A stretch of DNA of 64,000 nt from Bacteroidia bacterium (GCA_017640445.1 JAEPQQ010000003.1:42543-106542), one strand, 5' to 3'. Positions 1,488 to 64,000 are shown, counted from the first letter of the stretch. A program made the numbers and translations. Notes: a model not told the origin generated them from the letters alone.

Positions 1488-1528
1488 AGCCGATCGGCGT
1501 ATTTTTGCTCTAAGCTAAAAACACGCCT

Positions 1529-3088: not shown

Positions 3089-3091
3089 TCT

Positions 3092-6099: not shown

Positions 6100-6204
6100 G
6101 AAGTTAAATTGTCACTTAAAATTCGATATTTGTAACGTTTTAAAAGCTAAAGTTCATTTACATCGTTTACCAGATTCGATTAAATAATATTAACCCTCTA
6201 CAAA

Positions 6205-6774: not shown

Positions 6775-6779
6775 CAGCC

Positions 6780-43614: not shown

Positions 43615-43784
43615 GGTTCAAAGAAAGTACTTTTAGTTATAATTCTCTGTAACTAAAATCAAGGTGGTGCGTAATACCTATAACTGCACAAACCTTTATT
43701 GTCACTCATGTAGACCCTATATTTCCCTTATCTTAAAAAAGATAGTCCGTTTCCAACTAACTAGCTAATTTGAGCCCTTTATCA

Positions 43785-43792
43785 TAAATTTG
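43785..43792 (+). promoter_or_regulatory. Candidate Bacteroidetes sigma-A -7 element (TAnnTTTG) for the unknown operon
   Basis: 'TAAATTTG' lies about 27 nt upstream of the first ATG (43820). Confidence 0.35.
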
Positions 43793-43819
43793 GGCAACTT
43801 AAAAATTAATTCAAAATCT

Positions 43820-45193: not shown

Positions 45194-45212
45194 GGCCCGC
45201 GAAAACTGAAAT

Positions 45213-46310
45213 TTGAAGACAATTGACATAAACAATCACTTTACAGAGCTCGACCGAAGCATTCTGGAAGGTGAAACTGCATACTCTGATTACTTCAACT
45301 ACGTTCGGGATTGTTTGAACATCTTATTAAGCTCGTTCGACAACATCACCACGCAAAGCTCGCTTGAAATCAAAGTGCTTAAGAGTTTCTCTCAGAAGTT
45401 CTTAAATACGATTGAAGCATTTCGACTCAAGTATGCCTTTGAGGATGAAAGCCCCATGCGTATTGACTTGACAGAAAGTGGCTTCCCGAACTTTATGGAG
45501 TTTAAGAAGTTAAACGACGACATTGATCGAAAGGAGACTGCTTTGGAGAAACTACCTAGTCAGGACTCACTCAAACAAAGTATTCTGGACCACCTGATTC
45601 GAAAAAAAGAGGACCCAAGGCACCTACTTAAGCAACTGAGCCGATCGAGCTATTACATACGTTTGAAATGGAGCAACCTGTTTACAGAATTCACTCCAGG
45701 AACACTGGAACTTCTGAATGAACATACCGATAAAGCTCGTACCCGAACGTATTTCTACTCCTGGGCGTCTTACGACAGTGTAACAAACAAGCCTTTCATT
45801 TACACCATGGTCTTCGACAACAAGGCCATCTCGAAAGAAGGCGTCACCGACGTAGACAAAGACCCCGGTTTTGTTGAAACAATTAAACGTGTAACGCACA
45901 ATACTTCTCCATTGAAGGTAATTGCTTCCGACATCGACAATGCCTACGAAAGTGTTATGCCCAAGGTAATCAAACGTATTGAAATTGGTCCAATCTTCGG
46001 GAAGTATGCACAGGACAAACATCCGCATACACTGCTTATAAAAAAGCAATTTTCGGACGACGATTTCATCTTTACATACAACACAGAAATCGTCTTTTCA
46101 ACAGGTGAAAAACGAACCAAGTCCTTCCTGTCTAAAGGGGAGCTCCGGCAGGTGTTCTATGTCGACGAGTCGAACAAGGAGTGTATGGAAAAAATGGTCT
46201 CCGACTATCATACATACCTGATCACTTCTCACAAGGTACTGCAATACCTTAACGACAATGAACCCGACATGTTAAAGGATCTTTCGGCACCTGTTTACAC
46301 CTACAACTGA
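45213..46310 (+). CDS. Operon gene B: hypothetical protein
   Basis: 365 aa. No motif recognised. 19-nt gap from gene A. Confidence 0.55.
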   Translation: MKTIDINNHFTELDRSILEGETAYSDYFNYVRDCLNILLSSFDNITTQSSLEIKVLKSFSQKFLNTIEAFRLKYAFEDESPMRIDLTESGFPNFMEFKKLNDDIDRKETALEKLPSQDSLKQSILDHLIRKKEDPRHLLKQLSRSSYYIRLKWSNLFTEFTPGTLELLNEHTDKARTRTYFYSWASYDSVTNKPFIYTMVFDNKAISKEGVTDVDKDPGFVETIKRVTHNTSPLKVIASDIDNAYESVMPKVIKRIEIGPIFGKYAQDKHPHTLLIKKQFSDDDFIFTYNTEIVFSTGEKRTKSFLSKGELRQVFYVDESNKECMEKMVSDYHTYLITSHKVLQYLNDNEPDMLKDLSAPVYTYN

Positions 46311-46311
46311 T

Positions 46312-48270: not shown

Positions 48271-49534
48271 ACTGATCCAAAACGGTTTATTTGGTCATTC
48301 ACTGGTACAAGTGAGTACCGAGTCGATGATTAAACGATACAACGACTGTTTGAAGGATATTGGCCTTGCCCCAACGAGGTTGACGTCGTTTCACATCGAC
48401 GGCTGGGGTTGGAGTCCGGAGATTGCTGAGGAACAGGGTGACCGGTTTTATCTGTCTCACGGTTTGGCGAATCCATATGGGATTATAGTAAGTCCCAAAC
48501 AAGCTAATAGCTCCATCTATTTACCTTATCATAGTTTCGACAGGGCAATTCACAAGACCATATTTGAGCAGTACGCTGATCAAATCAAAGACATTACATC
48601 GCGATCGGGCCTATGGTTTGAACTTGACCAGGAAATATCGGCTTACCGATCACCGCAGGACCTACTGATGGTTGATTATGTGAAATTGAACTTCTTTTCA
48701 GTAGATCGCATTATGACCGCCGCTCAGGATCAACGGGCACTGATTCGGGAGTTCTACGACAAACCTCATGCCTGGTCGAACGACGAACTTCGACAACGCA
48801 TCATCGATAGCAGTGAGCGTCATGGAGACCTGAGGTACTCAAAATTTGAGATACCCGCTCATCCTTTCAACGAAATCGAGAACTTCTTCACGGTTGCTTT
48901 TAACGGTGTATACGTGTTTAAAAAACTTCCAAACGGCAAACCTCTTCTGGTACACCAGTCGGGCGATTCCAGCGTATCGGGAGAAACGAAACACGGGCAC
49001 GTAGAATACAACGTCAACGATCCTGAACTCATCAGCTATCTGTACAATGCGGGTATGATCTCGAACAACATCAAACTGTTTGAAGAGCACCCTGTGCTGT
49101 TGGAACTTATGCAAGAGCATCTTTTGTTAGAAGCCGCGTCCAAGTTAGAAGAACCAGTGGACTTCTCAACCATCAACGCTACGCAAAAGAAAGGTGTAGT
49201 GAATCGGCTGATGAAGCAAAACCTTCTTGGAGATGCCTACTTTGAGTTCGAACGGCTCATTATGGATGTTCGCGATGGTTCCGTTGGCGCGTCTTACTCT
49301 ATACCCGATGTTTTACGCCCGTTTTTGCTGAACCCTGAAGCCAAGCTTTCGTCTCAGGAAAAACTGGTGTTGTGGCAGTTGTTATGCACCTACAACCCGG
49401 CCAACCCGGTGTTCACCTATTTGTTTGACAAATCAAGTTTTTACTCTCAGTATAAAACCTGGGATGAAAAACTGCAGCTTTGGATTATCCAAAAAATACT
49501 CGCTCATAAAGAAATTTTTAACGCCTTGATTTAG
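48263..49534 (+). CDS. Operon gene D: hypothetical protein
   Basis: 423 aa. 8-nt overlap with gene C. No motif recognised. Confidence 0.55.
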   Translation: MIKLIQNGLFGHSLVQVSTESMIKRYNDCLKDIGLAPTRLTSFHIDGWGWSPEIAEEQGDRFYLSHGLANPYGIIVSPKQANSSIYLPYHSFDRAIHKTIFEQYADQIKDITSRSGLWFELDQEISAYRSPQDLLMVDYVKLNFFSVDRIMTAAQDQRALIREFYDKPHAWSNDELRQRIIDSSERHGDLRYSKFEIPAHPFNEIENFFTVAFNGVYVFKKLPNGKPLLVHQSGDSSVSGETKHGHVEYNVNDPELISYLYNAGMISNNIKLFEEHPVLLELMQEHLLLEAASKLEEPVDFSTINATQKKGVVNRLMKQNLLGDAYFEFERLIMDVRDGSVGASYSIPDVLRPFLLNPEAKLSSQEKLVLWQLLCTYNPANPVFTYLFDKSSFYSQYKTWDEKLQLWIIQKILAHKEIFNALI

Positions 49535-49541
49535 CGCTTCT

Positions 49542-50057
49542 ATGGATACTTTTTTATCACTACTTGTCGGTTTCGTTATTGGGATTCTGTTCTTTGCCTG
49601 GGACAACAAAAAAGGATATGTGTGGTACAAACGTTGGTACGACCTAAGCCATAAAACACCCCTGGATTCGGACAATGTTTACAGTTTTATAAACAACCAG
49701 CCGTTTTCAAAGAGGCTGGTTCCTGCAATCATCTTAACCGTTCTTTTCGCCTGGGGCTCGTGGTTATTAGGTGACCTAAACCTCATTATTACGCTGGTTA
49801 CCGGTATGCTTTCACTGGTTGGTGTGATAGCCGGTTTCTACGTTGGCCCGATGGTTATGAACAAATTACCTAAAGGTTTAAAAGAGGCAAATAAAACCCT
49901 TAAGAAGATTGACGAATTAGAGAAAGACCTTCTCGACGACCAAAAAGAACCGAAACCGCAACAACCCCAGGCTCCTGAACAAAGCTCAAGCGACAAAACC
50001 GACGACAAAAAAGATACCGATTGGAGAAAAGGTGTTCAGGATTTTCTTGATAAATAA
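49542..50057 (+). CDS. Operon gene E: small 3-TM membrane protein with a charged cytoplasmic tail
   Basis: TMs 'LLVGFVIGILFFAW', 'AIILTVLFAWGSWLL', 'LVTGMLSLVGVIAGFYVG', and a K/D/E/Q-rich C-terminus. Confidence 0.55.
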   Translation: MDTFLSLLVGFVIGILFFAWDNKKGYVWYKRWYDLSHKTPLDSDNVYSFINNQPFSKRLVPAIILTVLFAWGSWLLGDLNLIITLVTGMLSLVGVIAGFYVGPMVMNKLPKGLKEANKTLKKIDELEKDLLDDQKEPKPQQPQAPEQSSSDKTDDKKDTDWRKGVQDFLDK

Positions 50058-50068
50058 CAAAACCACAC

Positions 50069-51658
50069 ATGGAAGAAACCACCGAACAACAAAACAACAG
50101 ACTCTATTGGATTGTCGTAAATCTACGAACCAGAATTTCGACAGCCTTAAAGAAATTCATTAAGAAACGTCCCATCCTTTCCGGGATTGTGATGTTGGTA
50201 ATTGCCTACTTCATCTTTACCGGACGCAGTGGAATTCAACCCGCGTTTCTGTTAATTCGGAAGTTCTTCTTATTGGCGTTGCTGTCGTTGGTGATTTTGT
50301 GGTGGTATTTTAAGGGGTGGAAAACACGTACCAACAGGGGCAACATAATCGGAACGATCTTCCTGCTTGGTTTTGCTGCGTTTAGCTATTTCATTGGACC
50401 AGGTCTGTTTCGATACCTGAGCCTTTATACGCACTACACCAAGCTCGAAAAGGTGGCTTTGACCGAACTGCCCCCTACTGGATTTGAACGGATTCAACCC
50501 ATCAATTCAGTTAGTACCTTAATTAATCAGGAAGCACTGCGGGAAACCGAAGATGCAACACCTCCACGGTTCATGAGAGGTAAAGACGGTAGATATTATT
50601 ACAGTTGTGCTGTTGGACCAGCGAAAGAATATAAGATTCAACAGGTGAGCAAGAATATGTACAAGGTCATTTTTGTACCATCCGACCTACCGGCTCCTGT
50701 GTTCTCTGGCAAATACCGTTCGGATGTAAGTTTTGACATTGGTGAACTTCTCTTGTTCAGTAAAAAGACAACAAGTGCCGTTATCAAAAGATTTACACCG
50801 TTGCAATTCCTAAACTACGAGCCAGCCGAACCGCTTTTTCTTCAAAACGACGAAGGTAAATGGGTTCAGGTGGTCCCTCTCATCAAATGGAGAGGCTTTC
50901 TGTTTCCAAGACCCGTCTTTGGTGGGGTGATGGTTATTGAGGATAAGTCAACCTCGAAAGGCTATTTCTCAAGGGTATTTTTTGGCAAGGGAACGTTCAT
51001 CCCAAAAGCTGAAATTTCCAAGCACCCTTATCTGGTTGGGCAAAACCTCATTCCAAAACAAGTTGCACGGTTTGTTGCCGAAAGCTTTCGCTTTGCCAAT
51101 GGCTTCTTTGCCCCAATGCCTTACTACCATGAGGGTGACATACGTATTCCACACCTGCCAAACGACGTAAACCCACAACCGTTTGTTACCTACTTCAATG
51201 TTCCGGGCGCTCCTAAACTGTACAACTTCTTTGGGCTCGAACCGTATCAGGAAACCAAGAAAGGGCTTAGCCTTAGTCTTCTCATTCCAGGTGACGACGA
51301 TGAACGGGTGTTCTACATGGATCATCGCCAATCGGAAAACACCTATATCGGAAGCAGTGCCATCTCTGCAAAAATTATTGAAAGCAAAAAGAACTACGAC
51401 TGGAGCAAGAACTACCCGGCTGAAAGTCGTCCGTTTGTTCGAAAAGTTGATGGAAAGTCAAGGTTTATGTGGTTAAGCACCATTGTAACAAAGGCTGGCG
51501 ATCAGGGAGAGTACATCGGTGGTAGTATACCGGAACTTACTCTAACGGATGCCACCCATGGGAAAGTGGTCTGGATCAATTCCGACTCCCTCATCAACAA
51601 CGATAGTTGGATCCATCTGGCTGAAGAGGAATTGCAGGAATATTGGCGAAAAGAATGA
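50069..51658 (+). CDS. Operon gene F: membrane protein with 4 N-terminal TM helices and an extracytoplasmic domain of about 400 aa
   Basis: Hydrophobic N-terminal helices followed by an aromatic-rich soluble domain. Confidence 0.55.
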   Translation: MEETTEQQNNRLYWIVVNLRTRISTALKKFIKKRPILSGIVMLVIAYFIFTGRSGIQPAFLLIRKFFLLALLSLVILWWYFKGWKTRTNRGNIIGTIFLLGFAAFSYFIGPGLFRYLSLYTHYTKLEKVALTELPPTGFERIQPINSVSTLINQEALRETEDATPPRFMRGKDGRYYYSCAVGPAKEYKIQQVSKNMYKVIFVPSDLPAPVFSGKYRSDVSFDIGELLLFSKKTTSAVIKRFTPLQFLNYEPAEPLFLQNDEGKWVQVVPLIKWRGFLFPRPVFGGVMVIEDKSTSKGYFSRVFFGKGTFIPKAEISKHPYLVGQNLIPKQVARFVAESFRFANGFFAPMPYYHEGDIRIPHLPNDVNPQPFVTYFNVPGAPKLYNFFGLEPYQETKKGLSLSLLIPGDDDERVFYMDHRQSENTYIGSSAISAKIIESKKNYDWSKNYPAESRPFVRKVDGKSRFMWLSTIVTKAGDQGEYIGGSIPELTLTDATHGKVVWINSDSLINNDSWIHLAEEELQEYWRKE

Positions 51659-52869
51659 TTGGCCTAAGACTTGCATTAACGACTTGCCTGATGCTGACGG
51701 CTTGTTTTTCCTTTTGCCAAAAAGTCAAACGAGTTAAGCAGAAAATGGAAAACAAAACCATCAAGCACATTTATGTGAGGCAAGATGGTTTGGAACATTT
51801 GGAAACGGGCGAGTTCTACCTGATTCAAAAGAAAGACACCTTGTCGAAAGGCAGGTCTTTTGCAAATGGCCTGATTCACACCTATGCTGGTGACACCACC
51901 TGGGTCACGCATAAGGACCGACCAGAGTACAAAGGCATGATGATCAACGGTAAAAAAGAAGGTCAATGGGTATTTGTGCATCGCCTGGGATACACAGGAC
52001 ACCTCCTCTACAAGAACGACAAACAAGTTGGTGATGTCTCATCCTTTTTTCCCAATGGCAAACCCTTTGTTCATTACCATCTCGACGACTCTTCAAAACA
52101 AGACGGACGTTTCGTTTTAATGAACGCCCAAAACGACACTGCTGCTGTCATACATTTTAAGGCCGACAAGCCACATGGCACCATGTGGACCAAATACTCC
52201 TCAGGGAACTACTTCTGCAAGGCCATATACCGGAATGGTAAGCTCTGGACCTACGATGAATTCGACTCAGAGGGTAAACTCAATCCCGAATCATCTGTAA
52301 AAGACGGTAATGGTACAGTGCTAATTAAGAGTGCCACGGAGTCCAAAACAGAACCGATCATGGAAGTACGTTTTGAAAACGGTTACCTGCACGGCCCGTC
52401 CACCAATTTTCAGGTAACCAATGGAGAGAATATGGAGTTTTACAAAAAAGGCGTTCTTGTTGAAAGCATGTACGAAAAATCAAGTGATTCCTCCACTAAC
52501 TGGTCGTCATGGTTTGCCTACATGATGTTCAAAGACAAGAGTGGTCGTTATCTGGGCTATGGACGAGCCAAATTTGGTGATACTGAATTGGAATTGGCGC
52601 TGGATCGATACGTTGATGATAACATACGCGTTCCTGACATTGCTTACGAAATGGCAAAATCGGGTCAGGTTATTGTGGAGTTTACGGTTGAACAAGATGG
52701 TAGGGTAAGCAATTTGACAATTGGATCAGACGTAAAATTAGGTTATGGGGTGGAACAGGCGTGTTTGAACGTTATTGAACAAACCAGTGGCTCGTGGCGC
52801 CCATTCACCCGGTTTGGTTTACCGCAACGAATTAGGTTTACCAAGCCAATCGGGTTTAACTTTTTCTAG
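51643..52869 (+). CDS. Operon gene G: lipoprotein with YwqK/MORN-variant repeats and a C-terminal TonB_C-like domain
   Basis: Signal/lipobox 'LTTCLMLTAC'. Repeated 'G.W..Y..NGKL' units. C-terminal 'VIVEFTVEQDGRVSNLTIGSDVKLGYGVEQACLNVIEQTSGSWRPF' fits the TonB C-terminal pattern. 16-nt overlap with gene F. Confidence 0.6.
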   Translation: MAKRMIGLRLALTTCLMLTACFSFCQKVKRVKQKMENKTIKHIYVRQDGLEHLETGEFYLIQKKDTLSKGRSFANGLIHTYAGDTTWVTHKDRPEYKGMMINGKKEGQWVFVHRLGYTGHLLYKNDKQVGDVSSFFPNGKPFVHYHLDDSSKQDGRFVLMNAQNDTAAVIHFKADKPHGTMWTKYSSGNYFCKAIYRNGKLWTYDEFDSEGKLNPESSVKDGNGTVLIKSATESKTEPIMEVRFENGYLHGPSTNFQVTNGENMEFYKKGVLVESMYEKSSDSSTNWSSWFAYMMFKDKSGRYLGYGRAKFGDTELELALDRYVDDNIRVPDIAYEMAKSGQVIVEFTVEQDGRVSNLTIGSDVKLGYGVEQACLNVIEQTSGSWRPFTRFGLPQRIRFTKPIGFNFF

Positions 52870-54488
52870 AACACCTCAACCTTGGCATACCCCACCATAC
52901 CATTTTCAATAATGCGGATAAAGTAATGGCCCGGTTGGTTTAGCTCTACACCTACCCTGGCATTAGACGAAGTCAAGAATTTAACAATAGAGCCGTAGCT
53001 ATTAAATACTTCAATAACACGTTCTTCTCTCGACTCAAATTCCAATGTACAATGCCCGGAAGTTGGGTTGGGATACACTTTATGTAATCTGGGCGACACC
53101 AAATCGTTATTTCCAACAATCACATAAGTGCCACAAAAACGGTTGCTATCCAGATCCACCTCTAGTTTCCCATTCGGTGCCAGTGCCTCAAAGCACAAAT
53201 CCAGAATCGGGCCACGTTTAATACCCATAAAACGCGTTTTTGATTCAAATGTAGCTTCATCACCTGGTGCCAGGTTAAGGGAATCGAGCACCTCATAATA
53301 GATCGCATTTTGACACCAGGCAAGATGCCCTAGGTTGCAGAAGATAGCCACTGAGTGCAGTGTATCCAGGCCGACATTTTTGATTGCAAACTCTCCCTCT
53401 GCTGTAAAACTACCTACTTGGAATTCGTCAGTGGCAATGCGCCTCAATTGAGCTTGTTTTAGTTGTACATTGGGCGATGGTCTTTCGATGGGTCTTGTAC
53501 GCCAGGGTTGAGCGAACGCCATCATCTGGCCAGAGTACGAATTCCCGGTAAAAATGAACTCCGATTGGGTTCGATGAACATCGGTCACGTTACCTCCTGG
53601 ATTCTGATACATAATAGTGTTCCAGGATGAGTTGGTTTGTTCATGGAGCACGACCTGGTTCGTATCGGCTTCTATAATAAATACGGTGGCATCAATCAGT
53701 TTGATTTTTTTAAACTCTTTGGATGCCTGAAGCAAAGTATCCCTAACGATTAGTCCGGTATCCATTCGAAGAATTGACTTATCTGTTTGAAGTAACACAT
53801 TATCTCCTTGTAACACGGCACCCTGTATTCCGCCTATGTAGGAACTGGAATCAAGTAACACACCAGAAGTATCTGCCTTATAAACGCGCTCTTCGGTTGA
53901 CAACAAAAGCGTTGAACGATCAACAAAGACCATGGCCACCAGTGGTGACCCCATATTGAGCCACCTGGCTGATCCGATCTCGCGTGCAGCTGTATCAAAC
54001 GTAAACAAAGCATTATCAACGCCAATTGCGCCCAATCCATCCCCGTTAAAATCAACCAAAATGGGTTACTCCCAGGGAGGTTTAAGGTACAAGGGTTCTG
54101 TGGTTTCCAGCGTATAGAGCTGCTTCCCATTTGGGCTATATGCGGCAAAGACCACTCGTTCATCCATAACCACATCCCCACTATTGTATTCAACCCCTAC
54201 GGTATGAATAATCGAAGGAGTAGTAAAAATGGTTCGAAAGAACGCATTTGACGTATCCCTGGATGTTAAATGCCACTTTTCCACACCGTTTTGAAGAGTC
54301 ACAATACCTTGATAAAAACAAGACGGAACGGACAGTTTACCTCCAACAATCAATAGAGAATCGTTAAACACAGCTGAACCCAATAGAGTGGATTTGGTAT
54401 GCGAAGTTTCTGTATCAACCCACGACCAGGACTGGCACAACGCAAGGTTGGCATACAAAACGAACAAAAAACTAAGGAAGTGTTTCAT
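52866..54488 (-). pseudogene. T9SS-secreted FG-GAP-like protein gene interrupted by one in-frame TAA (rc of 54066-54068). ORFs 54066..54488 and 52866..54059 form a single reading frame.
   Basis: Upstream ORF has the signal peptide 'MKHFLSFLFVLYANLALC'. Downstream ORF begins at a TTG and ends with Por_Secre_tail 'KVYPNPTSGHCTLEF...QPGHYFIRI'. Same frame, separated by TAA plus two codons. Confidence 0.6.
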
Positions 54489-54564
54489 GGTATCAAAAGT
54501 GTACGAAAGCTTCTCCGAAGATACGGCTTCCGAATATCACAGGCCGTCAGTTGGTTGTCATATA

Positions 54565-54595
54565 CAAAAAAGGCCCGACAATGTCGAGCCTTTCT
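54565..54595 (-). terminator. Bidirectional terminator-like hairpin
   Basis: 'aaaaaaGGCCCGACaatGTCGAGCCtttct'. Confidence 0.4.
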
Positions 54596-54767
54596 GTGGT
54601 GTGGGGCGTACCACAACCATTTTATTTTATTTGACTACATTGTACTATTAAAGCCTAAAAATACAAATAATCTTCATATTAACAACACAATACAATCACA
54701 TCACATACATGTTGTTCGTCCCCAATATTGTCCCCCATTTGGATATATCATATATTTGCGGGGACAA

Positions 54768-56081
54768 ATGAACGTAATTAACATCCCAAATCCTACCATA
54801 AGTTTTCACCCTAAAAATCTCAAGGCCAAATCAAACACTGTACTTTACGCCAGGGTTTATTGGAAAGGGCAAGATTTTAAAGTTTATACCAACTCAAAAG
54901 TAGACCCCATCAAATGGAAGGAACATAAACGAAAATCCAAAAAGTCCGACTTTGATAGTCTTTTTGGAAAAACTTCCATCTATGGTGATCTAAACACAAT
55001 AAGAAATCAAATCATTAATGCATTCGAATTATATAAAGCTCAAGTGATTAATACGGGCAACGAATTTGTATTCAACGAATTCAAATCTTTATGCAGGGAC
55101 AATCTTACTAAAGACAAAAATGTTCAGCGCGGAGATTACCGAACTGACCTAATTGCTTTTGCTAAACACTATTACGCAGAACTTAACGGCCATAGGGCAA
55201 AAGGAACGCTAAAAACGTATAATACATTAATCACTCAGCTAGAAGCATTCAAAGAGACTAGTAACAAACTGTCTTTCGACCTGAAGGACATTGACCTTAA
55301 GTTCTATCATGAATTTGTTTCTTTCTTGTACTCTATCCCTACTCCTACCAAAACTCCAGTCAAAGCAAACACAGTAGGTAAGAAAGTCGCAATTCTTAAG
55401 GCATTTTTAAGGGAGTCGCATGACCGTGGCTATCACAACAACACTGCATACCTCAAAAGCAGTTTCAAAACACCAAGAGAAGAGGTGGATTCTGTTGTAC
55501 TATCTCCAGAACAGGTTCAAACAATTTCCAATTTGGACTTGAAAGAACACCCTGGTCTTTCTGCGGTTCGAGACATCTTTATTTTCAACGTAAAATGTGG
55601 CCTTAGGTATAGCGACCTACAAACCATAACACGTGACATTATGATTGTTGACAGTAACGACAATAGGCAGCTAAGAATCAAATCACAGAAAACTGGTAAG
55701 GACATCCTCCTTCCGTTGATTCCTGAAGCCCATGAAATTTGGGCACGATATGACTACAAATTCCCACATATATGGCCTCAGAAGTTTAATAAAAAGATCA
55801 AGACAATAGCAAAGTTGGCTGAGCTTCAAGATAATTTTTCAGTAGAACGGACTAGTGCCAAAAATGTAAAAACCAGAGAGACACGTCCTTTCTGTGACTG
55901 GATATGCACGCATACAATGAGAAGGACCTGGGCTACTACAGAGTATCGCAGTGGAATCCCTTTATACATAATATCTCGACTTTTGGGGCATAGCTCCGAA
56001 AAGGTCACTAGAAGATACTTAAAGATTGACCTTGACCAAGTAGCATCAGATTATTTCAGTTATAAGAAAAAAAATGACTGA
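54768..56081 (+). CDS. Tyrosine-type site-specific integrase (Bacteroidetes phage-integrase family)
   Basis: C-terminal catalytic region 'HTMRRTWATTEYRSGIPLYIISRLLGHSSEKVTRRYLK' (R...H..R..Y), 438 aa from the ATG at 54768. Confidence 0.8.
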   Translation: MNVINIPNPTISFHPKNLKAKSNTVLYARVYWKGQDFKVYTNSKVDPIKWKEHKRKSKKSDFDSLFGKTSIYGDLNTIRNQIINAFELYKAQVINTGNEFVFNEFKSLCRDNLTKDKNVQRGDYRTDLIAFAKHYYAELNGHRAKGTLKTYNTLITQLEAFKETSNKLSFDLKDIDLKFYHEFVSFLYSIPTPTKTPVKANTVGKKVAILKAFLRESHDRGYHNNTAYLKSSFKTPREEVDSVVLSPEQVQTISNLDLKEHPGLSAVRDIFIFNVKCGLRYSDLQTITRDIMIVDSNDNRQLRIKSQKTGKDILLPLIPEAHEIWARYDYKFPHIWPQKFNKKIKTIAKLAELQDNFSVERTSAKNVKTRETRPFCDWICTHTMRRTWATTEYRSGIPLYIISRLLGHSSEKVTRRYLKIDLDQVASDYFSYKKKND

Positions 56082-57018
56082 GTATCAAATAAAATATGAC
56101 CCTTACCGTTTTAATTCGTTTAAAGAAGGTGAGTCAGAACTAATAACAAGTTATGGATCTTTTCCTAGACAGAGCGCTTTAGAAATGTTTCTCGCAATGG
56201 TCTTTGTATCATTCAATCCAGATGCGTCATATAGTATTATCTCCCCTTTAAAACGCAGCATCACAAATCTTCATGACGGCTACACATTTCATCCACCTAC
56301 AGTTTTGAGCAATAATGAATTAAAACCCACCCAAATTGAAATTGACATAGTGAACTCGTCCAGATTTGAAGAAATGATCGATCAAATATTCTACAAAACT
56401 GACTCAAGGCTCAACCTCTTTTGTTCAAAATATGGTCCTAACCATCCTGGGCAGTTAAGTTCTGTATTGTCCCAACTGGAAAATCTACTTTGTAGTGATA
56501 TCTATCCTCCCGAACAAAGTAATCTCCCCAAAATTGATGTTAAGTTATTTGACACTAAACGACTCATTGGAATCATGAGTGATAGGCAAGCTGAATTAAG
56601 AGGGGGATTGCACAAACAAAGAAAATATTATTGCCACTCATTTGTCAAAACTGAGGCCATAGAAATTTTTGAATTCAACAAATATGAAACTTTTATTAGG
56701 TTCGAATCTTTACACCTCAATGGCAGGTTTATCAACCTTCAGACCAAGAAATGGTTAAAAGGTGATACTGAATTTATATGTCTTTGTCTAGCTGTTGTTC
56801 AAAAGAATTACATTTTCAAACCAATACTCAATAAAGGAATCAGAAATAACAACAGGCTGCACAATGTAATTGCATATTATGAAAAAAGGTATAATTACAA
56901 ATTAGGGCCAAACTTAAGAAAGCCCTCTCAGTATGAAAAGCGATTTGGCAAATATGCTCCGCAGAGTAAAAAAGCTGAGTTTCGTGAGCCGTACTCCTAT
57001 CTCGTGAGTTACGTTTAA
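56074..57018 (+). CDS. Hypothetical protein (island cargo)
   Basis: 314 aa ORF overlapping the integrase stop by 8 nt. AT-rich. Confidence 0.45.
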   Translation: MTEYQIKYDPYRFNSFKEGESELITSYGSFPRQSALEMFLAMVFVSFNPDASYSIISPLKRSITNLHDGYTFHPPTVLSNNELKPTQIEIDIVNSSRFEEMIDQIFYKTDSRLNLFCSKYGPNHPGQLSSVLSQLENLLCSDIYPPEQSNLPKIDVKLFDTKRLIGIMSDRQAELRGGLHKQRKYYCHSFVKTEAIEIFEFNKYETFIRFESLHLNGRFINLQTKKWLKGDTEFICLCLAVVQKNYIFKPILNKGIRNNNRLHNVIAYYEKRYNYKLGPNLRKPSQYEKRFGKYAPQSKKAEFREPYSYLVSYV

Positions 57019-57100
57019 GTTACATTTGATCTACATCTAGGTTACATATTTTCAACACACAACGAATTTATGCACATTTAACTGAGGCCTATAGGTTACG
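57008..57100. repeat. Cluster of four GTTAC(A/G)T direct repeats (iteron or arm-site-like)
   Basis: GTTACG 57008, GTTACAT 57019, GTTACAT 57041, GTTACG 57095. Confidence 0.5.
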
Positions 57101-57139
57101 TTTTAAGAGCCCCCCTATTTTCAGAATTAAATTTGTAGT

Positions 57140-57436
57140 GTGAAAACATCACTAAATATACAACTGTCAATTGAAGAACTCAAAGAGCTAATTGAGGGCA
57201 CAGTTCGTGCATCACTTTCAGCTCTATTGAACAATACTGGTGACAATAAAATGATGTCTGTTCGACGAGTTTGTGAATATCTCGACATCTCAAAACAGAC
57301 CTATTACAATTGGGTGAAGGGTGGTATCTTAAAACCATTCTATATCGGACATAAGCCTTATATAAGGGTTCAAGAACTTCAAGACGCTATATCAACCAGC
57401 CCAGTTAAGTCACAACATCAAATTGATTTATCTTAA
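57140..57436 (+). CDS. Excisionase/MerR-type helix-turn-helix DNA-binding protein
   Basis: 'MSVRRVCEYLDISKQTYYNWVKGGILKPFYIGHKPYIRVQEL' is typical of the HTH_17/Xis family. Confidence 0.6.
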   Translation: MKTSLNIQLSIEELKELIEGTVRASLSALLNNTGDNKMMSVRRVCEYLDISKQTYYNWVKGGILKPFYIGHKPYIRVQELQDAISTSPVKSQHQIDLS

Positions 57437-57453
57437 ATCTAATCCATAAAAAT

Positions 57454-57642
57454 ATGAAAAACATAATTCACATAGATCCTGAAGTTAGTCGATATAAATA
57501 CTTTACGATTGTTCCAGACATAAATTTCACAAGCATTATTCCTGAAGAGCTACAGAATGAAAAAAACATTGACTTTGCTATTTATTTTATAAGTCTATTG
57601 TGCAAACGAATTGGCTACTCACTTAATGGACAATCATGCTAG
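57454..57642 (+). CDS. Small hypothetical ORF (62 aa)
   Basis: Fills the gap between the Xis-like gene and the next ORF. Codirectional. Confidence 0.25.
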   Translation: MKNIIHIDPEVSRYKYFTIVPDINFTSIIPEELQNEKNIDFAIYFISLLCKRIGYSLNGQSC

Positions 57643-58898
57643 GTCCAGTCCACAAATCTTACGACTCAAGTGTATCAATATGTGGACTCCGTTTGAAGGC
57701 TTTAAATAATAATTACGCCAAAATCATAAAACCACTTCTAGTAAATGAGAACCCTAACGGTTTTATAACTCGGGGCCCATACTCTGTAAAGGACCACAAA
57801 TGCTTCACCTACAGCATGCTTAAAGGCAGTTTAGATACTATGGTCTTAAAAGGTATTAATAACCAAAAGTTAATCAACAAACTAATATTACAGGAAACCA
57901 AGATTGATGACACAGTGTATAGTCGCTACCCTTTTCTTTTAAGACATTTCAACACAAAAAAACTCAAGATTAACACCTACAAAGCTTTAAAAATAATACA
58001 AGAAAAAAGTCAAAGTACAGAGGAGATATTCAGCCGACTCAGATGCATTCAGGACATACACAATGGAACCTATAGAATTTCTCTTAACCCTGAAACAGAT
58101 GGAAGAGTTCACACTCCTATCACCTCGTTGCCAAAAAGTGTTAGGCAACATGTTTCATACAACGGAAAACCGTTGGTTGAGATCGATATTTCGAATGCCG
58201 TCCCATTTTTCATATTCCTTTTCCTTAAAACTTCACACCAAAAAAACACCCCTAAAGTCTTTTCATCAAGTACTAACAACTGCTACCCTTTAGCTTCATT
58301 TCTTGATGTTTTAAGTTCTGTAGCCTTTATAACCTATTCTATGATTCTCAAAAAGCTGAGGCACGTTGATACCAATGAGTTTGAGCTCTTGCGCAGAACA
58401 ACTACGACAGGAACATTTTACGACCAATTCGTAGAAGATTTTAAAGAGTCCCATTCATACGCTGAATTAAAAAAAATGTCAATCGAAAATGGTGCTGATT
58501 TTAACGGAAGTCATAAAGACATAAAGAGGATTGTTAAAAAGAGAATGTTATCAATGATCTACGCTAAACCAAAGGGTTTCAAAAAAGAACAGGCAATATT
58601 TGCTAGACACTTTCCAACACTACTCCTTGCATTAAACTCGGCTAAAATCTCAGGCAAAGGCAAAGAAAGATACAAGAACCTTTCTCATTTGTTTATGCAG
58701 TTTGAAGCAAGCATCATGATAAATCTATGTGCACGTAGGTTCAATCAAAAGTTTGCGAGACATGCTCCTATATTTACCTTACATGACTGTCTAATTACAA
58801 CTGCTGATTACGCAGCTAAGCTTCAAGAGATAATAGAATCTGAATTTCTAGAGCATTTTTCAGTAAAGCCGAAACTTAAACGACAAATATGGAATTAA
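57636..58898 (+). CDS. Hypothetical protein of 420 aa (possible replication/mobilisation function)
   Basis: Long AT-rich ORF. No relaxase or primase motif identified. Confidence 0.45.
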   Translation: MLGPVHKSYDSSVSICGLRLKALNNNYAKIIKPLLVNENPNGFITRGPYSVKDHKCFTYSMLKGSLDTMVLKGINNQKLINKLILQETKIDDTVYSRYPFLLRHFNTKKLKINTYKALKIIQEKSQSTEEIFSRLRCIQDIHNGTYRISLNPETDGRVHTPITSLPKSVRQHVSYNGKPLVEIDISNAVPFFIFLFLKTSHQKNTPKVFSSSTNNCYPLASFLDVLSSVAFITYSMILKKLRHVDTNEFELLRRTTTTGTFYDQFVEDFKESHSYAELKKMSIENGADFNGSHKDIKRIVKKRMLSMIYAKPKGFKKEQAIFARHFPTLLLALNSAKISGKGKERYKNLSHLFMQFEASIMINLCARRFNQKFARHAPIFTLHDCLITTADYAAKLQEIIESEFLEHFSVKPKLKRQIWN

Positions 58899-58904
58899 TA
58901 TAAT

Positions 58905-59279
58905 TCATGTAACAAAGTATATGTGTTGAATATTGGAATTCCTTCTGGAAACTAGAATTATTGACTGGCCTGTACCAGCTTGGAGTAAAATGTCAACTAA
59001 CTCGCCATCCGCATCCTCACAGCGATAGATATAGCTCGTGTTATTTCGCTCAATTTTATCAATCACATACTCTCTGGCTCCTCTTTTCGGAGTGTAGATG
59101 GACAAAATCATAGATACAGCATCAATTGACACACTTCCTGAAGTCGGCTTGATCATAGTGTGGTTTGGCTTAACACCCTTGCGAGCAATCAGATGACCTG
59201 TGATTCTAAACTCTATTTGAGCCAAGGATGGCTGGGAGAAACCGATAGAAGCAATTAATAGGAGGATAAGGTTTTTCAT
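58905..59279 (-). CDS. Small secreted hypothetical protein
   Basis: Signal peptide 'MKNLILLLIASIGFSQPSLAQ', 124 aa. Confidence 0.45.
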   Translation of the reverse strand: MKNLILLLIASIGFSQPSLAQIEFRITGHLIARKGVKPNHTMIKPTSGSVSIDAVSMILSIYTPKRGAREYVIDKIERNNTSYIYRCEDADGELVDILLQAGTGQSIILVSRRNSNIQHIYFVT

Positions 59280-59407
59280 AGAATCAAATGATTATCGTGT
59301 GTAACTGATTTTAATGACTATTTGAAGTTTTGCAAAGATACACATTATTTGCCCATGGTTGACATATATGTTTACCTTCAAAGTTATTATTAGGTTCATC
59401 TTGCCTT

Positions 59408-59638
59408 GTGGCAAAGGATAACTTTGAATATGAACAGGTGCAAAAGGCATTTGGAGAAAGAATTAGAAAACTTCGGGAGGCCAAAGGCATGTCGTTACTT
59501 GATTTAGGCGTCATTACAGGGTTAGAAAAAACAGCCATATCACGCATCGAAAATGGGCGAACGAACGTAACACTTAGAACAGTCACCAAGCTCGCCAGAG
59601 GACTCAACACTGACCTGTTGGAACTTTTTAAGGAATGA
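59408..59638 (+). CDS. XRE-family helix-turn-helix transcriptional regulator
   Basis: 'FGERIRKLREAKGMSLLDLGVITGLEKTAISRIENGRTNVTLRTVTKLARGL'. GTG start. Confidence 0.7.
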   Translation: MAKDNFEYEQVQKAFGERIRKLREAKGMSLLDLGVITGLEKTAISRIENGRTNVTLRTVTKLARGLNTDLLELFKE

Positions 59639-59901
59639 CCTGGAAGGGGAGACACCTCATCCCGTTCAGTTTATTTGCAACGCGACAATCAATCGACTAC
59701 TTCTACGTGAGGCAACTGAGCGCCAAGTGTAGGCGGTAAAGAGAGGCATGCTTTAGAGCTGATTTTTTAAGTTACAACTCCATCCATAATTGAAATCAAT
59801 CGTATTATATAATGTATAATAGTATTTAATGGAGCTTTTAAGTAAATATTAAAATACATTTTGGGTGTGAATTAAGGAGGTGGTCGTTAGCGGTTTTGGA
59901 A

Positions 59902-60591
59902 TTACCAAGGTCGAGACCTTGATAGCTTTAGCTTCTCTTTAATTTCCGCATCGTCTTTAAATGATTCTAAAAGGCTTATCTCTCCTAGTTCTTTGGCTTG
60001 ATGCTTCCTCATTTCCCAATAGCTGTTATACGCACCGGGCAGTAGCCAAATAACGATGCATTGTTTGTTGTCTTGAAAATCATGTTGTATTTCTGAGACA
60101 TGGAAATAAGTTGTTCCTAGAAATTCTTTAAAAAACGGGAGTTGAACTATCTCACCTTTCCGAGGCACAACATGAAGATGATCATAATTCAAATTAATTG
60201 ACTCCCCAAATCCCTTAACGTAAAAAACGTACGAAACCTCAGCCGTGTTGAAAGGAAATTCTTCAGCCATCGGATAACTAGCAAGGTCATCATGTATGTT
60301 CTTAATTTGCTTACGAACTACATCGTAACTTTTGTTCACAGATAAACAAATGTTTTTGATTGTTGGCAGCGCTTGATCTTCATTACGATAGTAGTCTTCT
60401 TGAAGAAGACAATTGAGAATATCTCGATAACTTTTGTCTAAGTTTACAAATTTCTGTGCTCTTGATCTTTGGGAACATATATCCAAAATCATTCCCTTGG
60501 TTGACATTTTTCTCTGCATCATATTCACAAGGTATACAAACTGTAATATCGTAAAGGCCTTCTCATCAGAAATAAACTCACAATTGTGCAT
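59902..60591 (-). CDS. Hypothetical protein (divergent from the candidate HEPN gene)
   Basis: 229 aa. No motif recognised. Confidence 0.45.
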   Translation of the reverse strand: MHNCEFISDEKAFTILQFVYLVNMMQRKMSTKGMILDICSQRSRAQKFVNLDKSYRDILNCLLQEDYYRNEDQALPTIKNICLSVNKSYDVVRKQIKNIHDDLASYPMAEEFPFNTAEVSYVFYVKGFGESINLNYDHLHVVPRKGEIVQLPFFKEFLGTTYFHVSEIQHDFQDNKQCIVIWLLPGAYNSYWEMRKHQAKELGEISLLESFKDDAEIKEKLKLSRSRPW

Positions 60592-60632
60592 CTTGCAAAC
60601 TCCTTTTCTAACAATTCATTTTAATTTGAAGT

Positions 60633-61517
60633 ATGACACGAATCGAATCACGATATACCCCAATTTGGACTTACACGCTTTCTGGGGTTAATTGGTCTAT
60701 TGACCAAATAAATTACGCAGACAGCAACTCATTTGGAGAAGACTACTGTTGTACAAGGTCAGGAGTAAACGCTCAATTAATTGTCTCAATGGCCTCCGTG
60801 GTCGAAGGTTCTATGCGAGAATATCTACGAAATAAAGTAATTAATTTAGACAACCTTAAGAAGCATGTATCTCAAATTGAAACTGGTGAGATTAGTTCAA
60901 TGGATGACTTGGACAAATTAAAAGAGGAAATATTTGGAACTGAACAATTAATGGACCATTTAACTAACATTAGAATAAAAAATGAAATAAAAAACGGTAA
61001 AAAAATATGGAAGGTTCTGGGAATCATATCACCAAAATTTAGAAAATATTGTGAACGCAGACTAAAATCTAAACTTGTCAAAAAGTCCCAATACAAGTTA
61101 TACTCTCAAGAAGCCTCATTGGAATTAATAGAAGAGGGCGCATGGAATAAACTAAAACAGTATTACCATAAGTCGAATACGGTTGATCTAATGTCCATTC
61201 TTAGTCGTGTTAGTGTAAACCTTTTCAACGATGTTCTCATGCTAATGAAGTTCAGACACTTTTTTGTTCATGCTAGGATCATGGTTCATACTGAGAACTC
61301 GGTTAATTTCGAGGATGGTTCATTTACTGCAATACGAGATTATTTAACCAATAAACAATTGTACAACACATCAGAAGGCTATTACATTGATAAAATTGCG
61401 CCAATAGAAATCGTTAAACATTTTCAAGACTGTGTCACCACATTTTTACAGAGTTCAGTTTACTCTGATGATTCAAGAATATCTAACTCATTAATTCAGG
61501 TCTTTGGCATTAAATGA
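60633..61517 (+). CDS. Hypothetical protein with a possible HEPN-like Rx4H motif (Abi-like candidate)
   Basis: 'KFRHFFVHAR' contains R-x4-H. Helical. Island context next to R-M. Confidence 0.4.
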   Translation: MTRIESRYTPIWTYTLSGVNWSIDQINYADSNSFGEDYCCTRSGVNAQLIVSMASVVEGSMREYLRNKVINLDNLKKHVSQIETGEISSMDDLDKLKEEIFGTEQLMDHLTNIRIKNEIKNGKKIWKVLGIISPKFRKYCERRLKSKLVKKSQYKLYSQEASLELIEEGAWNKLKQYYHKSNTVDLMSILSRVSVNLFNDVLMLMKFRHFFVHARIMVHTENSVNFEDGSFTAIRDYLTNKQLYNTSEGYYIDKIAPIEIVKHFQDCVTTFLQSSVYSDDSRISNSLIQVFGIK

Positions 61518-61587
61518 TAGTAGAATTAGTACTCGTGCAGAATCAAATTAACCCGTATTACTTGAATGCATGTAAAAACACAACGAT

Positions 61588-62325
61588 TCACACCATCAAT
61601 TTCTCCAAATAGTCCTTCGTTACCCTCCAGTTGGGATAAAGCTTTTCTAAAAGGTCGAAGAACGCTTTACTGTGGTTTAAATGAGCCAAATGACAAAGTT
61701 CATGGACAATTACATATTCTATACATTTCCTGGGCGCTTTGACCAATTCAATATTTAGGTGTATTCCTCCATTTCGGTCACAACTTCCCCATCGCTTTTT
61801 CATCCATCGATACTTCAGAACTGGCGTGCCGTTATAAAAGGAATTTGACAACGGAACCAATTCTTTAAACAGTTTCTCAAAGTACCTGGTTGCCTTGGCC
61901 TTGTACCAGGACCTGATTAGCTTCTCAACTTTTGAACTATCTGTTTTGTCTGGTAGCGACACTTCTAGCATTCCACCATGCAGTTTTACACTTTCGACAT
62001 CGTTCAGGATAAGTTTCAACTTGTATTGCTTGCCTAAATAAAGATGCGTTTCTCCGCTTACAAACTTCCTAGGTGGAGTTATTGGATGAAAAGACAAGAA
62101 AAAATCCTGTTGTCTTAATATCCATGCAGCCTTGCTTTTAACTTTCGTTTGAACATCTTCATTCGTAGCATCTAAAGGAGCTATCACACGAACGCTTTTG
62201 TCAGGATACACCTTTATCCCTAACGTCTTTCTTTCAGCATACTCTAATGAGTAGCCAATCGTTGAGGTGCCGTATTGAATCTGATCCTGCATTATTGATA
62301 CTTTAAGATGGCAATTTTCAAACAT
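61588..62325 (-). CDS. YgjP/DUF45-family zinc metallohydrolase (WLM-like, 'M48 family metallopeptidase')
   Basis: 'RWGSC' and 'YVIVHELCHLAHLNHSKAFFDLLEKLYPNW' HExxH signature. Confidence 0.75.
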   Translation of the reverse strand: MFENCHLKVSIMQDQIQYGTSTIGYSLEYAERKTLGIKVYPDKSVRVIAPLDATNEDVQTKVKSKAAWILRQQDFFLSFHPITPPRKFVSGETHLYLGKQYKLKLILNDVESVKLHGGMLEVSLPDKTDSSKVEKLIRSWYKAKATRYFEKLFKELVPLSNSFYNGTPVLKYRWMKKRWGSCDRNGGIHLNIELVKAPRKCIEYVIVHELCHLAHLNHSKAFFDLLEKLYPNWRVTKDYLEKLMV

Positions 62326-64000
62326 TCTTCGTTTATCGCATCAATCTTGCTCCAGTCTGTATCCACGTCGTATTTTGTCATAAGATCGTACAAGGCATCA
62401 CCAATTCCAATGTTAATTTTACCTACGATGTCTTCATTTTTATGCCAATCGACAATCTTTTTACTGTTCAAATAGATATGTTCCTTAACCATATTATCAA
62501 TCGACAAACTAACCTCAATGTGAAATTCCGTTTTCATCAACTCAGCGTCTTCAAAGATTGATTTACTGAAATTGTAAAAAGCCAGTGCCACTTCATTATT
62601 TGCAAGTTGCTCTGGCGCTCCTTCTGATCTACCTGTAAGGAATTTATCTTCGTGTTCTTTAGCCCTTTTTAGGTACTCCACTTCACTGATTCTCTTCTGA
62701 TGGTAGTCCGCAATTGTCTCTTTAATTAAATCTGCCAATTTCTTATAATAGATCGGGTCTTCCTGCATTTTTACATTTATTGCCTTGACCGTTCTGCTGG
62801 CTATATGATCAGCCTGGGCTGCTTTGCCTACAAGCTTTTCAACTTCTGCATCCCTTTCTTCCTTATCAAAAATATTCACCAACTCGGTGATCTTCAAGAT
62901 ATCTCCTTCAGTGGAAATGTGTTTATTGATCAACTTTTGAATTTGAGGTTCAAACTCTTTGTATGATATATCATCATTATACCTTCTCGTTACATCAACA
63001 CGAAGTTTAAGGAAGAACTTTGCGTCCTTTTTGAACGTATCTATATTCATTACATCAGTGTTAGTGACAAAGTCAACTGATGATAGTGCCATTTTAAGCA
63101 ACCGAGCGAATTGACTTACTTTCTCATAAAATTTATTTCGTCTGTCTTCAGCGGACAAATGCTCCTCATATGCAGTGACTTCAACATGCTTACCTTTTAA
63201 CGTTTTAAATATGTCCCAAACCTCAGAATGTGCTTGAGGAAGTTTCTTAATTTCTTCATTCAGTTTACTAAACGTGCCTTCCAAATCAGATTCATCAAAA
63301 CCTACCAAACCAGTAATTCCAGAATAGGTACTTAAGGCAGAGTCAAGGTTTTCTAGGTTGCCATAATAATCAATGATATAACCATAGTCTTTCCCAGGAT
63401 AAACTCGATTTACCCTTGCCACAGCTTGGAGTAAAGTGTGCTCTTTTAATGACCTGCACAGATATAGTACAGTATTATTTGGTGCATCAAAACCAGTAAG
63501 CAGCTTCGCAACCACGATTAAAATCTCTGGGTGGTCTCGTTTTTTGAACTGATTAATAATAGCCTTTTCATACTTTTTGACACTGCCATATTTGTCAATC
63601 ATTGAGTCGAAGTATTTATCCTCACGATCTTTCTCGTCGTTGATATTATAATAGGCATCTTCGGCACCTTCCCGCTGGTCTGATTGGGTTACTATAACTT
63701 CAGTGCTGACCATACCAATTTCATCCATATACTGTTTATACAGCAAGGCTGTTTTGATTGTTGGTGCAACAAGCTGCCCTTTGGGTTTGTATTTGTTGTC
63801 ATTCGTCTGAAAAAAGTTGGCGTAATGTTCACTAATATCCCAAGCACGATGGTAAACCACAGCCTCAGCTTTGTTCAATTCATTTATGGTGTTAAACTTC
63901 TTTTTTAAGCGTCCCTTCCCATATTCTGTGAGTGGTTCAGAAACCTTGTCAAAAAACCGATTAATTGGATCTTCATTTATTGTTATCAGATTGTGCCTTC
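62292..64000 (-). CDS. hsdR: Type I restriction enzyme R subunit (HsdR), C-terminal part. The N-terminus lies beyond the window end.
   Basis: Helicase C-domain motifs 'LLTGFDAPNNTVLYL' and 'LQAVARVNRV'. The frame is open to nt 64000 (the track start at 63878 is an internal TTG). Confidence 0.7.
   Translation of the reverse strand, partial: RHNLITINEDPINRFFDKVSEPLTEYGKGRLKKKFNTINELNKAEAVVYHRAWDISEHYANFFQTNDNKYKPKGQLVAPTIKTALLYKQYMDEIGMVSTEVIVTQSDQREGAEDAYYNINDEKDREDKYFDSMIDKYGSVKKYEKAIINQFKKRDHPEILIVVAKLLTGFDAPNNTVLYLCRSLKEHTLLQAVARVNRVYPGKDYGYIIDYYGNLENLDSALSTYSGITGLVGFDESDLEGTFSKLNEEIKKLPQAHSEVWDIFKTLKGKHVEVTAYEEHLSAEDRRNKFYEKVSQFARLLKMALSSVDFVTNTDVMNIDTFKKDAKFFLKLRVDVTRRYNDDISYKEFEPQIQKLINKHISTEGDILKITELVNIFDKEERDAEVEKLVGKAAQADHIASRTVKAINVKMQEDPIYYKKLADLIKETIADYHQKRISEVEYLKRAKEHEDKFLTGRSEGAPEQLANNEVALAFYNFSKSIFEDAELMKTEFHIEVSLSIDNMVKEHIYLNSKKIVDWHKNEDIVGKINIGIGDALYDLMTKYDVDTDWSKIDAINEECLKIAILKYQ

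Follow-up and report, generated by a model that had tools for sequence, protein, structure and literature searches.

A likely integrative island with a TV-Pol-type polymerase-like gene and defence cargo at the 3' end of a tRNA-Phe gene in a Bacteroidia bacterium

What kind of DNA begins at about 54.6 kb in a 64,000-nucleotide (nt) stretch of the genome of an uncultured Bacteroidia bacterium, where the composition turns AT-rich? The stretch (GCA_017640445.1, JAEPQQ010000003.1:42543-106542), which comes from a metagenome assembly and is called the window below, had been given a sequence-only reading that placed an integrative element or defence island there. Our analyses support that proposal: positions 54596-64000 are likely to be the left 9.4 kb of an integrative island of at least 12.4 kb, inserted in the 3' end of a tRNA-Phe(GAA) gene and loaded with defence cargo. 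An integrase at the edge, a break in composition, a related genome with the site unoccupied and the resolved left junction speak for it, whereas the details given for the attachment (att) site, the terminator, the backbone genes and YgjP have to be revised. L numbers denote the contigs and loci compared with the window.

Composition, empty site and left junction

The guanine plus cytosine (GC) content is 0.366 over 54541-64000 vs 0.4455 over the core at 1-54540, where even the lowest 9.46-kb sliding window has a GC content of 0.434 or higher. The tetranucleotide distance to the core rises more than twofold, from 0.11-0.16 in the core to 0.33-0.36 in the island, and the GC minimum, at 0.339-0.359, lies within 56-59 kb. 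The sequence-only reading had described an AT-rich region starting at about 54.6 kb and strongest at 56-59 kb, and had named a composition statistically like that of the core as an observation that would speak against an island. Both analyses bear out its description, and the 1-kb GC bins of island and core differ significantly (Mann-Whitney p = 6e-7). Two more 1-kb bins of the window, 6001-7000 and 43001-44000, fall below the core mean, with GC contents of 0.386 and 0.404.

An island-free counterpart was found in L122, which was retrieved with the closest homologue (76% identity) of the protein encoded at 50069-51658. L122 is syntenic with the window from 40.0 to 54.44 kb, up to and including a gene for a protein with a type IX secretion system (T9SS) sorting domain. 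Past this gene L122 has two small genes, a minus-strand tRNA-Phe(GAA) and then Fer4/CCG genes, with no integrase, polymerase-like or restriction-modification (R-M) genes at the corresponding site. Comparison with a relative devoid of the island, a check proposed with the sequence-only reading, thus revealed an unoccupied tRNA-Phe at the syntenic place. The features at the island's edge are as follows.

54569-54593, minus strand: terminator-like hairpin in the chromosomal flank, outside the island (12-nt arms, 92% complementary, followed on the minus strand by TTTTTTG)
54596-54608, minus strand: attL core, the displaced last 13 nt of tRNA-Phe(GAA), reading GTGGTGTGGGGCG on the plus strand; left boundary of the island
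54718-54767, plus strand: arm repeats upstream of int (GTCCCCAAT at 54718-54726, GTCCCCCAT at 54730-54738 and, inverted, GGGGACAA at 54760-54767)
54774-56081, plus strand: tyrosine integrase of 435 residues (Phage_int_SAM_5, 3.4e-12; Phage_integrase, 9.5e-11; phrog_1 integrase, 5.6e-28)

In a direct alignment, window positions 54563-54608 match the terminator hairpin and tRNA 3' end of L122. All 13 nt of the core (13/13) are identical to positions 62-74 of the L122 tRNA-Phe, and the exact run of 23 nt shared by the two sequences, GAGCCTTTCTGTGGTGTGGGGCG, ends at 54608. The similarity stops at 54608/54609, beyond which L122 continues with the body of the tRNA and the window with AT-rich island DNA. 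The left edge of the island is now fixed to a single nucleotide.

These results correct several points of the sequence-only reading, which had found no tRNA 3' fragment at the left junction and had left the att site unassigned. The missing fragment is present on the minus strand as the last 13 nt of tRNA-Phe, and the att site is the 3' end of this tRNA gene, with 54596-54608 as its core. The hairpin proposed as an att candidate does exist; nevertheless, because L122 has a hairpin of largely the same sequence at the same place, downstream of its intact tRNA-Phe, we read it as that tRNA's own terminator on the chromosome. The whole window codes for no intact tRNA or tmRNA, and no Rfam family matched in 52-64 kb.

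To follow the island beyond the window we used L001, the one ENA contig that codes for the 234-residue YgjP of the island. Its sequence agrees with that of the window without a difference along 12,413 nt and reaches window-equivalent position 66,976. A downstream direct repeat of the junction, which the sequence-only reading had suggested looking for, was not found up to that point: there is no second copy of the junction or its core in 54.8-66.98 kb, where the longest direct match is 11 nt, at chance level. The island therefore measures at least 12.4 kb. Its right end, past 66,976, is predicted to consist of an intact tRNA-Phe.

Both ends are visible in three related elements, each of which has an integrase and a TV-Pol-like gene between its repeats. 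In the metagenomic locus L105, a 13-nt direct repeat, GTGGTACCTCCAG, occurs once at position 1080, 190 nt upstream of int, and once as the last 13 nt of an intact minus-strand tRNA-Phe (12931), 11.9 kb away; the tRNA positions and orientation are those of the window. In L097 the repeat is 15 nt long and lies both at the 3' end of a tRNA-Leu and 188 nt outside int. In L003, from Winogradskyella flava, a perfect 77-nt tRNA-Arg repeat flanks a 9.4-kb element.

The window integrase starts 166 nt inward of the 13-nt core; a longer open reading frame (ORF) from 54399, which overlaps the flank, is unlikely to be the real gene. The window integrase and that of L105 are 26% identical (E = 7e-32). The inverted repeat that had been listed as a second att candidate, TTGTCCCC/GGGGACAA at 54728-54735 / 54760-54767, is real, but it corresponds to a third, inverted copy of the arm 9-mers. 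It lies within the arm of the element and has a positional counterpart in L105, so that it does not look like the crossover site. L105 carries the 9-mer GCACCCTAT twice, with the same 12-nt spacing and the same distance to int as GTCCCCAAT and GTCCCCCAT in the window. Judging from their sequence and arrangement, the GTCCCC arm repeats are probable arm-type integrase, excisionase or operator sites.

On the chromosomal side, a block of five to six genes at 43800-51660 is kept in order across L122, L123, L125 and L126. Its members code for proteins of 457 and 365 residues, an AAA ATPase, a DUF6638 protein, a 171-residue protein and a 529-residue membrane protein. The neighbouring gene for the T9SS-sorted protein (Por_Secre_tail; 52866-54488, minus strand) has an in-frame TAA at 54066-54068, and its L122 orthologue is a single 533-residue protein. 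A frameshift was rejected, as a single tblastn high-scoring segment pair spans this TAA. The interrupted gene is thus either a pseudogene or a consensus error of the metagenome-assembled genome (MAG).

A TV-Pol-type polymerase-like gene in the backbone

Every gene that the sequence-only reading had named in the island (integrase, HTH_17, XRE, YgjP/DUF45 and HsdR) was recovered by our library scans. The ORF at 57636-58898, which it had left among its unknown ORFs, turned out to be the main backbone gene, coding for a TV-Pol-type polymerase-like protein that had been overlooked. The genes inward of the integrase that form the backbone are listed below.

56074-57018, plus strand: ORF314, conserved backbone gene with no family match, overlapping the end of int by 8 nt
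57140-57436, plus strand: HTH_17 excisionase/AlpA-like DNA-binding protein (PF12728, 4.4e-8; TIGR01764 excisionase, 2.9e-4, under its cutoff)
57454-57642, plus strand: ORF62, the detached N-terminal piece of the TV-Pol (nodes 4-52 of the N-terminal hidden Markov model (HMM) of full-length homologues)
57636-58898, plus strand: ORF420, TV-Pol-type minimal family-A polymerase-like protein with predicted thumb, palm and fingers and without exonuclease domain
59408-59638, plus strand: XRE-family helix-turn-helix regulator of 76 residues (HTH_3, 4.3e-14)

ORF420 matches no Pfam, NCBIfam, PHROG or PADLOC model. Since sequence and profile searches of the PDB were empty, its identity is visible by fold comparison only. 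The AlphaFold (AF2) model (predicted local distance difference test score (pLDDT) of 77, predicted TM-score of 0.74) contains two antiparallel helices, two beta-hairpins, one with R157 and the other with H383-D384, a strand that ends in D184 and a long helical insertion. In a Foldseek search of the PDB family-A DNA polymerases fill the top 48 places, before the mitochondrial RNA polymerase POLRMT in 49th place, with probabilities of 0.98-1.0 and modest TM-scores of 0.24-0.41. These polymerases include the apicoplast polymerase, Taq, Klenow, the Bacillus fragment, Pol theta and Pol nu. At 420 residues, the protein is too short to hold an exonuclease domain. In the viral library the best fold matches are phage proteins of 400-430 residues (TM-scores of 0.50-0.55). 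A fold-level match to the Zamilon virophage replication protein (E = 5.7e-4) is the sole link that we saw to the original TV-Pol set.

TV-Pols have been described as stand-alone proteins of 400-600 residues without a nuclease domain and with an extra N-terminal region, composed of a thumb, a beta-hairpin bearing an Arg residue, an RNA recognition motif-like palm with two Asp residues, and fingers with an RxxxK motif (Iyer, Abhiman and Aravind 2008, Biol Direct 3:39; PMC2579912). They occur in Bacteroidetes among other groups, beside lambda-type integrases and in regions rich in R-M operons, and were predicted to be primase-polymerases (PMC2579912). Staphylococcal CcPol, which the Aravind group assigned to the TV-Pol group, was shown experimentally to perform primer-independent DNA synthesis with its partner MP, which resembles single-stranded DNA-binding proteins (SSB-like) (Bebel et al. 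2020, PMC7581432). ORF420 together with ORF62 fits the TV-Pol family, both by the published description and by its modelled fold. By analogy, the TV-Pol of this element is probably a primase-polymerase.

The residues invariant among 12 sequences of the ORF420 family are R157, H159, T163, R170, D184, Y262, K301, E357, T381, H383 and D384. R157 is part of a DGRxH motif, and the RxxxK motif of the fingers has a Lys in place of the Arg in the window copy (KRIVK). A word-indexed search gave 12 homologues. A full HMM scan raised the number of representative homologues to 8145, of which 2332 have E <= 1e-30; their length is 430-520 residues in nearly all cases. Ten sampled representatives are similarly devoid of Pfam domains over this region, and no names were obtained for representatives of the family. 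No near-identical DNA was found in plasmids or phages.

Full-length homologues carry the N-terminal region that is detached here. ORF420 begins at node 58 of the N-terminal HMM, in another frame than ORF62, and the frame switches between 57627 and 57642. A programmed -1 frameshift joining the two ORFs was considered on account of a slippery A_AAA_AAC at 57561-57567 and rejected, as the -1 frame is closed by a TAA at 57624-57626. Unless the split is an assembly error, autonomous replication of this copy may be impaired.

Some members of the family are found in other settings. A 35-kb plasmid of Hymenobacter qilianensis (L121, NZ_CP060788.1) codes within 407-4398 for a polymerase-like homologue of 524 residues (22% identity, E = 4e-10), with a ParA-like gene and a small ORF as neighbours; as there is a conventional Rep/ParA module on this plasmid in addition, the homologue may be part of a second replicon that uses a TV-Pol. 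P0089, a 719-residue protein from a Logan metagenome, is a family member with C-terminal NUMOD4 and HNH_3 homing-endonuclease domains, and NUMOD4 is also present in three neighbour ORFs of related loci. Two uncultured jumbo-phage records of 735 kb, LR756501.1 and LR756503.1, show a weak match to the palm and fingers at about 526,053-526,589 (E = 5e-4).

We compared the surroundings of the polymerase-like gene in about 40 related loci. A tyrosine integrase lies within 8 kb of it in 9/13 loci with at least 3 kb of sequence on both sides, and an HTH_17-like gene is found on the same strand no more than 800 nt upstream in 16/28. A Pfam census of 148 neighbour ORFs from 17 loci gave Phage_integrase (10), Phage_int_SAM_5 (9) and HTH_17 (7), followed by the type I R-M domains N6_Mtase (4) and Methylase_S (4). 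The cargo differs between elements, with type I R-M genes in the window, L084 and L097 (there enclosed by the repeats), a type II R-M system and GmrSD in L003, and phosphatase, metallopeptidase and tetratricopeptide repeat genes in L105. Because the int/HTH_17 neighbourhood is kept while the cargo varies, we regard the polymerase-like gene as backbone and the defence genes as interchangeable cargo.

ORF314 has no match in Pfam, NCBIfam or PHROG, and a profile search of the PDB with it was empty. In L104, L094 and L095, ORFs of about 305 residues occupy the corresponding place upstream of HTH_17; their similarity to ORF314 is weak but reciprocal, and their homology with each other and with an ORF of L099 is clear. 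XRE genes are located near the polymerase-like gene in L002, L087, L091, L094 and L105 as well. Based on these sequence comparisons, the shared backbone is made of the integrase, an ORF314-family protein, HTH_17 and the TV-Pol, often with an XRE regulator. In L086, L095, L096 and L097 (for instance at 8791-9162 of L097), a conserved ORF of about 123 residues lies between HTH_17 and the polymerase-like gene; by analogy, it could be a counterpart of the SSB-like partner of CcPol. There is no small ORF between the HTH_17 and polymerase genes of the window.

The type I R-M operon and orphan genes

The right part of the island harbours the cargo genes.

58905-59279, minus strand: ORF124, with a signal-peptide-like N-terminus, probably cargo; no homologue in the fetched loci
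59902-60591, minus strand: ORF229, an orphan counted as cargo, divergent from ORF294; no library gave a family match
60633-61517, plus strand: ORF294, orphan, predicted all-helical, with RHFFVH, an Rx4H pattern
61588-62292, minus strand: YgjP/DUF45 metallohydrolase of 234 residues (PF01863, 1.7e-56), the start of which overlaps the hsdR stop
62292-64000, minus strand: hsdR, C-terminal 568 codons, continuing to window-equivalent 65,456 (T1R_D3-like, 1.2e-21; PADLOC REase_I, 4.9e-70)

The extension of the contig, also proposed with the sequence-only reading, delivered part of what was expected past 64 kb. In L001 the full-length HsdR has 1054 residues with HSDR_N, ResIII/SWI2_SNF2 and T1R_D3 domains, and is followed by a 106-residue ORF and a fragment of hsdS cut by the contig end. 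The hsdS gene is thus where it had been placed, whereas the known sequence ends at 66,976 before any hsdM or the right end of the island is reached. Read from right to left, the cargo operon consists of hsdS, the 106-residue ORF, hsdR and ygjP, with hsdM presumably further right. The break coincides with position 1 of the ENA scaffold, inside hsdS, and the NCBI contig of the same MAG measures 119,655 bp. Repeated or variable target-recognition domains could have caused this assembly break.

YgjP had been taken for a separate item of cargo; it is rather an operon partner of hsdR. In a scan of genome contigs of species representatives seeded with the hsdS fragment (best match, 53% identity), hsdR is followed at once, on the same strand, by a gene for a YgjP homologue in 58/60 loci having both genes.

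ORF294 has no homologue but itself, and even at E = 10 it matches nothing in Pfam, NCBIfam, PADLOC or PHROG. Its single-sequence AF2 model (pLDDT of 34) is unusable, and the label of HEPN-like candidate given to it earlier is neither supported nor refuted.

Proposed mechanism, alternatives and known systems

These features suggest how the island might work. The integrase would recombine attP with the 13-bp core in the tRNA-Phe 3' end, and the HTH_17 protein would direct or assist excision. The TV-Pol, as its gene position and CcPol suggest, would copy the excised circle as a primase-polymerase. The XRE regulator would silence the module while the island is integrated, and the type I R-M system would guard the host against foreign DNA and probably stabilise the island.

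Several observations weigh against this picture. The second repeat, the intact tRNA-Phe and the right end lie beyond the known sequence, which stops inside hsdS. The empty-site evidence comes from one genome only, L122, as the more distant relatives diverge right after the gene for the 529-residue protein and are uninformative as empty sites. L122 itself has two extra minus-strand genes (coding for 333 and 194 residues, at 14703-16335) between the T9SS gene and the tRNA-Phe terminator that are absent from the window, so that the two genomes differ beyond the island. The TV-Pol gene is split in this copy into ORFs of 62 and 420 residues, and we infer the replicative role of this TV-Pol branch by analogy. 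Lastly, the visible 12.4 kb yielded no recognisable helicase other than HsdR, no SSB-like partner, no relaxase and no transfer gene, and no relaxase gene, origin of transfer (oriT) or type IV secretion genes are present in 54.6-66.98 kb.

The split gene also feeds the most serious alternative, a decaying, immobile remnant of a single past integration at tRNA-Phe, of which selection would keep the R-M cargo only. We consider it possible but doubtful, and it is compatible with the island reading. ORF62 and ORF420 cannot be rejoined by a programmed frameshift, the adjacent chromosomal T9SS gene contains an in-frame stop as well, and no transfer genes are visible. Nevertheless, none of the integrase, HTH_17 and XRE ORFs is truncated, ORF420 retains all family-invariant residues, the att core is exact, and the split might itself be a consensus error of the metagenome assembly. 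That no mobile element is present at all, the integrase standing by chance in an AT-rich chromosomal defence locus, could be suggested by the visibility of a single end, but strikes us as hardly credible: the junction falls exactly in a tRNA 3' end with the terminator of that tRNA left outside, the site is empty in L122, and relatives of the same layout show both repeats.

Two other explanations accept a mobile element and differ on its nature or on the role of the polymerase-like protein. P4-like satellites have an integrase, an AlpA-like helix-turn-helix protein, a replication enzyme and a repressor in that order, which the succession of int, HTH_17 (of the AlpA/excisionase family), polymerase-like gene and repressor recalls. 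As the best viral-library fold matches of ORF420 are small phage proteins, a phage satellite of the P4 or phage-inducible chromosomal island (PICI) kind, dependent on a helper phage for packaging and transfer, was considered. It is improbable, since no capsid, terminase-small, packaging or helper-interference gene was detected in the Pfam and PHROG scans, a close relative is present in 1 of 2.9 million IMG/VR contigs vs 36 metagenome contigs, and tblastn against phages gave three weak matches only. Other polymerase-fold proteins, such as reverse transcriptases, work in defence, and the gene does sit in an island with defence genes. The polymerase-like protein might accordingly be a defence or conflict effector, cargo rather than replicase; yet its place beside int and HTH_17 is constant across entirely different cargo (window, L084, L097, L003 and L105) and it matches no PADLOC model, which makes this role very improbable.

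An integrative island with a TV-Pol in its backbone is thus the reading that we retain. AT-rich, tRNA-integrated elements with R-M genes are common, and the island itself is ordinary. The island type and the polymerase family are already described; the exact att site, the tRNA-targeting layout common to relatives and the size of the family outside standard libraries are new. The polymerase family comprises more than 8000 clusters at 50% identity and has no Pfam, NCBIfam or PHROGs model. It was predicted in 2008 and is missing from the standard domain libraries, which leaves thousands of genes annotated as 'hypothetical'. It is a natural minimal form of the family-A polymerase core, and the pairing of a TV-Pol with an integrase and an excisionase-like gene is a simple marker for small defence-carrying islands in Bacteroidota.

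Tentatively, we propose that int, ORF314-family, HTH_17 and TV-Pol genes may be the mark of a large class of small self-replicating islands, hardly studied so far, in Bacteroidota and other phyla. These islands would target tRNA 3' ends, carry variable defence cargo and rely on a helicase-less polymerase of 450 residues that initiates DNA synthesis alone. If so, this polymerase would be the smallest self-sufficient replicase of its superfamily.

Several features of the island have counterparts in known systems. In type I R-M operons with YgjP/DUF45, hsdS, hsdR and ygjP are co-directional and ygjP overlaps the hsdR stop, as here; the operon of this island differs by the 106-residue ORF between hsdS and hsdR. 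We take NBU1-type islands of Bacteroidota, with their IntN1/IntDOT-type integrases, to share with the window island a tyrosine integrase, a tRNA 3' end as target, a short core and a small excision/regulation module. NBU-type elements presumably have a relaxase, an oriT and a DnaG-type primase, whereas the window island has no visible mobilisation gene and a TV-Pol in the place of the primase.

The polymerase brings the island close to two further groups of elements. In CcPol-MP of SCCmec and in the PolA-SSB systems of Firmicutes, an A-family polymerase is located in the core of the element beside a recombinase (PMC7581432; Rice 2022, bioRxiv 10.1101/2022.12.02.518924), as in the window. Nevertheless, staphylococcal cassette chromosome (SCC) elements have large serine recombinases and, without exception, a helicase gene, and their polymerase is coupled to an OB-fold SSB; none of these features was recognised in the window element, and the hosts of PolA-SSB are Firmicutes, whereas that of the window element belongs to Bacteroidota. 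The mobile elements described with the TV-Pol family (PMC2579912) also have a stand-alone, nuclease-free polymerase beside an integrase, in R-M-rich regions and in Bacteroidetes. They were proposed to be replicative transposons, and no tRNA target was given for them, whereas the window element integrates in a tRNA gene through a 13-nt core and carries a split polymerase gene.

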